Shown here one piece after another: positions 9,127 through 10,049 of a DNA stretch of 10,049 bases; position 1 is the first letter of the stretch; every line of letters begins with the position of its first letter. Source of the stretch: a virus (taxonomy: Duplodnaviria; Heunggongvirae; Uroviricota; Caudoviricetes); IMG/VR virus record IMGVR_UViG_2690316311_000018; one strand, given 5' to 3'. The notes under the pieces were generated by a model. The model saw only the letters and a list, made by a program, of their open reading frames with translations, ran no database searches and was not told the origin of the DNA. The position numbers and the translations under genes are program-made.

Positions 9127-9309
9127 ATGGAAAACGAACTGATCATCGACGGTCAGGTTATTGACCTGTCTGAAACACAGGAAAATGCAGAAGAAACCAT
9201 CATCCAAACAGAGTCACAGCCTGAGAATGAAAGCCAGGATGACAACGGAAAAGAGATGGCAACTGATCCTGAAAAAACCGAAGAGACACCAGAAGATTAC
9301 GCCTTGTGA
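9127..9309 (+). pseudogene. 5' fragment of a putative scaffolding-protein gene, truncated after 59 codons by IS insertion
   Basis: ATG at 9127 with AGGAG at 9115-9119. Acidic N-terminus MENELIIDGQVIDLSETQENAEETIIQ... in the position held by scaffold in P22/Sf6 (portal, scaffold, coat). The reading frame ends at TGA 9307-9309, which is the first three bases of the IS terminal repeat. Confidence 0.6.
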
Positions 9310-10049
9310 ACCGCCCCGGGTTTCCTGGAGAGTATTTTATCTGTGAACTCAGGCTGCCAGATCATTATTTCCGATGGAAGCATAATAAGCTTTTTCTGCT
9401 TCTGCCGGAGGAATATGGCCCAGCCTTTCCAGCAATCGTCGATTGTTATACCAGTCCACCCACGTTAGTGTGGCCAGTTCCACTTCTGTCCGGTTTTTCC
9501 AGCTATTACGGTGTATTACCTCCGCTTTGTAAAGACCATTGATGCTCTCAGCCATCGCGTTGTCATACGAGTCGCCAGTACTCCCTGTTGATGCCAGTAA
9601 TCCGGCTTCCTTAAGCCGCTGCGTGTAGGCCAGCGATACATACTGAGAACCTTTATCACTGTGATGGATTGTGCCGGACGGCCGACGGGCCCACAACGCC
9701 TGCTCCAGTGCATCCAGCACGAATGTTGTTTCCATGGATGATGAGACCTGCCATCCCACGATGTATCCGGCGAACACATCAATGATGAACGCCACATAAA
9801 CGAAGCCCTGCCATGTGCTTACCCAGGTAAAATCAGCCACCCACAACTGGTCTGGACGTTCTGCCACGAACTGACGGTTTACGCGGTCGCATGCGGCAAC
9901 GGCTTTCCGGCTGACGGTAGTGCGGACCTTTTTACCCCGGAGAACACCGGCAAGTCCCATAACTGCCATGAGACGTGCCACAGTGCATCTGGCCACTCTG
10001 ATACCTTCCCGTAACAACTGACGCCAGACTTTACGCACACCGTATACCT
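9307..10049 (-). mobile_element. IS3-family insertion sequence (IS629-like), partial; right terminal inverted repeat at 9307, body continues past the window end
   Basis: Terminal sequence TGAACCGCCCCGGGTTTCCTGGAGAG from 9307 resembles the IS629/IS3-family end as I recall it, followed by the 3' end of a DDE transposase gene on the - strand. Confidence 0.75.
9349..10049 (-). CDS. IS3-family transposase OrfB (DDE integrase core), 5'-partial; continues beyond the window
   Basis: - strand ORF with catalytic motifs in order D (WVADFTWV), D (HSDKGSQY), E (YDNAMAES), ending ...IGNNDLAA with stop at 9349-9351. The frame stays open upstream of the listed start (…YGVRKVWRQ) through base 10049. Confidence 0.85.
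   Translation of the reverse strand, partial: VYGVRKVWRQLLREGIRVARCTVARLMAVMGLAGVLRGKKVRTTVSRKAVAACDRVNRQFVAERPDQLWVADFTWVSTWQGFVYVAFIIDVFAGYIVGWQVSSSMETTFVLDALEQALWARRPSGTIHHSDKGSQYVSLAYTQRLKEAGLLASTGSTGDSYDNAMAESINGLYKAEVIHRNSWKNRTEVELATLTWVDWYNNRRLLERLGHIPPAEAEKAYYASIGNNDLAA

Follow-up and report, generated by a model that had tools for sequence, protein, structure and literature searches.

Interruption of the scaffolding protein gene of a P22/Sf6-like Escherichia coli prophage at the terminus of an IS629-type element

Introduction

The locus described here raises two linked questions, namely how a head-assembly gene placed directly behind the portal gene of a P22/Sf6-like prophage came to end after 60 codons, and what such an ending would mean for a prophage whose lysis genes look complete. 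The window (the whole stretch of DNA that was analyzed, 10,049 nt) was found to be an entire draft contig, JXVR01000089.1 of assembly GCA_000948745.1. Its 5′ end lies inside a Ser/Thr phosphatase gene and its 3′ end inside a copy of the insertion sequence IS629, and both ends are assembly breaks rather than biological boundaries. A multi-copy IS is thus where the contig breaks off, which leaves the far end of the element, the accompanying duplication and the remainder of the scaffold gene outside the window.

Prophage of origin and its relatives

Positions 1–9306 of the window were found to be 100% identical, with zero mismatches, to a P22/Sf6-like prophage of E. coli O26:H11 strain 11368. The same positions were 100% identical to a prophage of strain 2009C_3996, the serotype of which is also O26:H11 (PMC4711113). 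The 11368 prophage adjoins a tRNA-Arg gene and yfdC, possesses an IntS integrase and has an intact scaffold gene of 294 codons, behind which lie the genes for coat, head completion, ejection and the tailspike. The tRNA-Arg gene at which it is integrated is presumably argW.

The portal/scaffold region was detected in approximately 237 complete E. coli genomes, with at least 99% identity in 202, and two copies of it occur in five complete genomes. Nucleotides 1–400 of the scaffold gene are uninterrupted in all but one of the 232 complete genomes matching a segment around the scaffold start (231/232). The IS/scaffold junction of the window was found in 0 of 5426 complete E. coli genomes, and an exact look-up of the 60-residue product together with its stop codon recorded it on contig JXVR01000089.1 only, which marks the insertion as rare, recent and strain-specific.

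Lysis genes, late leader and portal gene

The features preceding the interruption that bear on lysis and head assembly are as follows.

432–1055, plus strand: Q antiterminator (Pfam Antiterm; identical to 11368)
1056–2127, plus strand: leader of 1.07 kb without a called gene, between Q and holin
2128–2451, plus strand: holin, lambda-type (Pfam Phage_holin_3_1)
2435–2911, plus strand: endolysin (identical to the intact 11368 gene)
2908–3345, plus strand: Rz (Pfam Phage_lysis)
Within 3101–3292, +1 frame: Rz1-like lipoprotein ORF inside Rz (lipobox LVVSAC)
6987–9113, plus strand: portal gene, intact, 708 aa (Pfam P22_portal; 100% to 11368)

The Q, holin, endolysin, Rz, small and large terminase and portal genes are base-identical to their counterparts in the 11368 prophage. 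This base-for-base identity, together with the lipobox LVVSAC of the Rz1-like ORF, bears out the original prediction, made from the sequence of the window before any comparison, that the Q, S, R and Rz/Rz1 genes are intact. The Rz1-like ORF carries no annotation in RefSeq relatives.

In identical RefSeq prophages, too, no gene is annotated in the stretch at 1056–2127, and tRNA and Rfam scans of the window returned no match. The stretch has a promoter-like site at 1098–1126 and terminator-like hairpins on the plus strand at 1390–1415 and 1831–1850. This stretch is probably the pR′/tR′ late leader, the position at which Stx phages carry their toxin genes.

The truncated scaffold gene

Directly downstream of the portal gene lies the interrupted ORF, with the following features at and around its two ends.

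9116–9120, plus strand: ribosome-binding site AGGAG with a 6-nt spacer to the ATG (read from the sequence)
9127–9306, plus strand: scaffold stump, first 60 codons of a gene of the Sf6 gp4/P22 gp8 type (translation, DNA identity)
9304–9306, no strand: TTG, predicted left copy of a 3-bp target-site duplication (by analogy with other IS629 copies)
9307–9309, plus strand: TGA, stop of the cut ORF and first three bases of the IS (CGT, Arg61, in the intact gene)

The ORF opens with the ATG at 9127 and is translated as MENEL...PEDYAL. The original prediction had placed a ribosome-binding site ahead of it, confirmed here as AGGAG at 9116–9120, and had given its length as 59 codons; the coordinates were right and the count is 60 sense codons (9127–9306). 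Read in codons, the window has ...GCC TTG TGA ACC GCC... vs. ...GCC TTG CGT ATT GGT... in the intact gene, placing the break between scaffold nt 180 and 181, exactly at base 1 of the IS (9307). The proposal that the IS terminus supplies the stop codon was correct, the TGA at 9307–9309 being the first IS triplet. The fact that this TGA is in frame has no special meaning, because both IS629 ends read TGAACC inward and about one-third of insertions would stop translation at once.

The nature of the cut gene was established from its intact alleles. The 180 nt of the stump are identical to the start of the scaffold gene of O26:H11 11368, which measures 885 nt (294 codons) and extends for 234 codons beyond the cut. 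Positions 8800–9306 of the window, covering the end of the portal gene and the start of the next, share 99.4% DNA identity with phage Sf6, in which the feature after portal is gene 4, a head scaffolding protein gene of 885 nt. When the IS and one CTG copy are removed from the 2009C_3996 sequence, an 885-nt ORF with 99% identity to Sf6 gene 4 results. At the protein level, the intact product was found to match the Pfam family Phage-scaffold (PF09306) over residues 96–267 (E = 4e-9) and to align with the P22 scaffolding protein (PDB 8I1V) over residues 91–284 (E = 3e-8), and a database search with it returned several hundred PF09306 relatives of ~294 aa each.

No Pfam domain was matched in the 60-residue stump itself, which is acidic and lies wholly upstream of the region aligning with the P22 scaffolding protein. 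Neither the scaffold domain nor the coat-binding region at the C-terminus is part of the encoded product (homology begins at residues ~91–96). Judged by these sequence comparisons, the cut gene is a truncated allele of the P22-like scaffolding family and not a functional member of it. Its likeness to Sf6 gp4 and P22 gp8 extends to the position of the intact allele between the portal and coat genes, whereas it differs from them in that only residues 1–60 can be made here.

The identification of the gene as a scaffold gene in the original prediction is upheld by the 99.4% identity to Sf6 and by the PF09306 and 8I1V matches of the intact allele. An alignment with the Sf6 and P22 proteins had been proposed as a check, and the intact scaffold gave 99% DNA identity to Sf6 gene 4 and an alignment over residues 91–284 with 8I1V. 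The contrary reading, that of a short ORF with a natural stop and no continuation, is refuted by the 234 further codons of the intact allele.

The IS629-type element

Beyond the junction the window consists entirely of IS sequence, with three features.

9307–10049, minus strand: right-hand 743 nt of an IS629/IS1203-type element (IS3 family), inside which the contig ends (identity to annotated copies)
9307–9331, no strand: right terminal inverted repeat of IS629, 25 bp (both ends of the 1310-bp copy aligned)
9349–10049, minus strand: C-terminal 232 codons and stop of OrfB, the N-terminus and orfA being off the contig (Pfam)

Positions 9307–10049 gave matches in 4184 out of 5426 complete E. coli genomes, and many of these genomes contain copies with 100% identity, annotated as “IS3 family transposase.” The IS part is identical to the 1310-bp copy of 2009C_3996 (743/743, 0 mismatches) and agrees at 742/743 positions with a copy in O157:H7 Sakai (annotated IS629 OrfB/“IS1203 Family: IS3”). 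Over their full length the 2009C_3996 and Sakai copies are 98.7% identical, with 17 of 1310 positions differing, and just one of these 17 falls within the 743 nt that the window contains. The 2009C_3996 copy is annotated with a programmed frameshift and a pseudoknot. The OrfB fragment (232 aa) matched the Pfam domain rve with E = 1e-26, as well as HTH_21, rve_3, and rve_2, and the transposase is antisense to phage late transcription.

An imperfect IS3-type terminal repeat starting with 5′-TG is present at 9307–9331 (right end). It matches the other end of the element at 22 of 25 positions, the first 13 nt being perfect (TGAACCGCCCCGG), and the terminal sequence that had been put forward as an IS end recurs at each end of the complete 1310-bp element. 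Copies with both ends visible are flanked by target-site duplications of 3 bp each, CTG in 2009C_3996 and ATC in Sakai. From its sequence, the element is assigned to IS629/IS1203 of the IS3 family. Its membership of the IS3 family had been predicted, and the 742/743 identity to the Sakai IS629 and the rve domains of OrfB agree with this. The IS629 of O157:H7 Sakai resembles it in sequence (742/743), in the terminal repeat (TGAACCGCCCCGG...) and in the OrfB rve domains; nothing of substance is different, and the insertion site alone is new here.

No other IS is as abundant in EHEC as IS629. Of its copies in O157 genomes, 62% are located within prophages, and duplications of 3–4 bp are generated (PMC3271280), with a matching 3–4 bp duplication kept by only 21 of 47 IS629 copies in O157 genomes (PMC3271280). 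Gene inactivation and deletions due to IS629 are known in EHEC (PMC9943667), including IEE-dependent deletions beside the element, the smallest of a few nt and the largest of more than 40 kb (PMC9943667). Its preference for prophage DNA and its use as a strain marker have also been described (PMC3271280; PMC9943667).

Origin of the junction

It could be asked whether the junction exists in the bacterium at all. The window is a whole draft contig (from 2015) which ends inside a multi-copy repeat, and the junction occurs in no other assembly, as might be expected if a prophage contig had been joined chimerically to an unrelated IS copy. The break, however, coincides exactly with the terminal TG of the IS inverted repeat, the position expected of a transposition event, and the identical contig has been recorded in two samples. 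Agreement of this kind with a known IS and its boundary goes far beyond chance. The two sides of the junction share only 2 nt, which rules out a k-mer mis-join. An assembly artefact is considered extremely unlikely.

The closest counterpart among complete genomes is found in 2009C_3996 (NZ_CP074890.1; locus 10186–11495), in which the same IS629 variant stands in the same orientation in the same gene, after scaffold nt 658. The two cases are alike in the 100% identical prophage flanks, the IS variant, its orientation and the scaffold gene affected. They differ in that the 2009C_3996 insertion follows nt 658, has a CTG duplication and retains both gene halves, whereas the break described here follows nt 180.

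This counterpart opens the possibility that the junction arose by a deletion or another IS-mediated rearrangement, with the IS standing at its edge, and not by a simple insertion, a reading which is considered unlikely though far from negligible. Two routes can be envisaged. By the first, the IS would have inserted after nt 658 as in 2009C_3996, and 478 bp beside its right end would then have been lost, by intramolecular transposition or an adjacent deletion of the IEE type; coat would still follow. By the second, recombination between IS629 copies would have removed or relocated the downstream head genes, and coat could be gone. Consistent with a rearrangement, the window differs from 2009C_3996 only by the 478 bp missing at the right end of the IS, and the ends of the would-be deletion share a 2-nt microhomology (TG). 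IS-bounded deletions that end in the portal gene of the O26 prophage are present in strains B1_2 and 12690, IEE-dependent deletions next to IS629 are on record (PMC9943667), and under half of IS629 copies keep their duplication (PMC3271280), so that rearrangement after insertion is frequent at such copies.

Against this, the identity to 2009C_3996 is not diagnostic, as the same 9306 bases are found in 11368 and in many O26 genomes with an intact scaffold gene. The shared orientation has a 1-in-2 probability by chance and the 2-nt microhomology a 1-in-16 probability, and the nt-658 insertion, the supposed starting point, is known from one complete genome only, that of 2009C_3996. An origin by adjacent deletion from the 2009C_3996 arrangement was accordingly demoted, given that an identical ancestor without the IS is abundant among O26 genomes.

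The likely explanation, held with good confidence, is a simple insertion of IS629 into the scaffold gene of an O26-type argW prophage, giving what should be a null allele in a prophage whose lysis genes should still function, and representing recent, strain-specific decay. It is preferred because many genomes carry the identical prophage with its scaffold gene intact and no special assumption is needed. An IS629-type element (1310 bp when complete) would have transposed between scaffold nt 180 and 181, presumably in a copy-out/paste-in event with duplication of the 3-bp TTG. Beyond the IS would then lie the other 705 nt of the scaffold gene, together with coat and the genes for the rest of the head and the tail.

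These readings predict different sequences beyond the contig end. A simple insertion with TTG duplication should show the left end of the IS (…CCGGGGCGGTTCA) followed by TTGCGTATTGGTGATG...; a left end directly adjoining TTGCGTATTGG..., the scaffold sequence from nt 178 on with its matching TTG duplication, would speak against a rearrangement, while the 478-bp adjacent deletion of the first route should give the left end followed by CTGAACTACTCG....

Exact look-ups of the predicted right-junction products, with duplications of 0–5 bp, gave nothing attributable to this assembly. Pattern scans of metagenome and species-representative genome collections did not find the predicted right junction, and a pattern scan of species-representative genomes did not find the left junction. 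Two candidates for the right-junction product were rejected: “MRIGDEE...” belongs to a Logan contig with a different IS3-like end at scaffold nt ~162, and “RIGDEE...” to a contig which merely starts at scaffold nt 180.

Consequence for the prophage

Nonsense mutants of P22 gene 8 form aberrant coat assemblies and give no viable phage. Two reports describe scaffolding proteins as essential and their helix-turn-helix domain as essential for coat binding (bioRxiv 10.1101/2022.12.13.520362; PMC12005531). A null allele is inferred here because the scaffolding protein, including the C-terminal coat-binding helix-turn-helix known from P22, is required for procapsid assembly. With such an allele the prophage would no longer make infectious particles, while Q-dependent late transcription and the lysis genes should stay functional. 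A loss of capsid assembly, with lysis but no infectious particles, can reasonably be expected and is probably the state of this prophage.

The coat gene had also been predicted to be missing; this was not supported, as coat follows scaffold in every relative examined, including 2009C_3996 with its IS. The description of the prophage as domesticated or decaying held only for decay, an insertion unique to one contig being recent and hence a poor sign of domestication.

The view that the capsid-less, lysis-competent state has been selected as a domesticated lysis module, as opposed to having arisen by neutral decay, draws on the intact Q and lysis genes and on several independent IS insertions and deletions in the portal–scaffold–coat block of other strains. 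The present allele is nevertheless confined to one contig, scaffold nt 1–400 remain uninterrupted in 231 of the 232 complete genomes with the region, and the lysis genes do not differ from their counterparts in intact prophages, so that no differential conservation is seen. Next to no probability was therefore assigned to selection of this allele. A broader form of the idea, in which the head block (possibly nt 180–184) is a preferred IS/IEE target and repeated head loss with retention of the Q-lysis genes is selected, was judged very unlikely; the advantage would then be, for example, lysis-dependent release without phage spread.

DLP12, Qin and Rac are cryptic lambdoid prophages of E. coli K-12 which keep lysis genes and are unable to form particles. 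The present prophage would resemble them in keeping a late regulator and the holin, endolysin and Rz genes while morphogenesis is lost, presumably in its case. It differs in age and extent, as those prophages are old, heavily deleted and fixed in their lineage, whereas here a single recent IS insertion is proposed in an otherwise complete-looking prophage.

Significance for annotation and typing

Insertion of IS629 into prophage genes of Shiga-toxin-producing E. coli is textbook knowledge. The case is a routine one of well-described prophage decay by IS activity, and only the insertion site is new. In annotation, the 60-codon ORF should be recorded as a fragment of a scaffold pseudogene flanked by IS629, and the prophage copy of this strain as one that probably cannot form particles. 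For the typing of O26-type isolates, the insertion site could provide an IS629 marker specific to the strain. A more general lesson is that a contig ending in an IS tells nothing of what lies beyond it.

Other changes in the same prophage family

Several other alterations of the head genes were noted in related prophages. The portal genes of MBT-5 and UTAK-12 carry IS600-family and IS3-family insertions, and strain 98224 has an IS1203 between scaffold and coat together with an IS-truncated portal gene. Protein P0133 represents read-through into an IS629 end, in the opposite orientation, at scaffold residue ~105. In a Logan contig, the first 28 nt, ending in ...GGCTACCTCA, are joined to scaffold nt ~162–163; this start looks like another IS3-family terminus, possibly an IS600-like one. 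A related Sf6-like prophage, with 98% identity (Logan ERR4785266, 4287–4598), has scaffold nt ~181–184 fused to gp10 nt ~188 with a 3-nt microhomology. The ~2.9 kb lost in between runs from within scaffold through coat and gp4 into the beginning of gp10.

A number of contig ends also fall within the scaffold gene. Three contigs, one each from NCBI, Logan and an ENA metagenome, break off in intact sequence (...GCCTTGCG) at scaffold nt 182, and others start at scaffold nt 180, 659, 661, 684 or 685 without IS-derived bases. These ends at nt 182 and starts at nt 180 and 659–685 are distinct from the junction of the window and might be explained by a second copy of the prophage or by a mixture of alleles. 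A 66-aa C-terminal scaffold fragment (P0153) was found on ~126 contigs, mostly of ~141 kb, and represents a recurrent assembly break.

An insertion hot spot at scaffold nt 180–184 was considered on the basis of the three contigs ending at nt 182, the one starting at nt 180 and the one deletion junction at nt 181–184. It was rejected, the clustering having come mostly from searching for products that end or start at residue 60/61; a single unbiased case has a chance expectation of about 1 in 5.

Finally, the Logan products P0170, P0171, P0173, and P0176–P0181 lose the scaffold reading frame at, or close to, the A6 run CCTGAAAAAACC, at scaffold nt ~145–155, corresponding to ~9271–9281 of the window. 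These frameshifts could be sequencing errors or real pseudogenes produced by slippage.
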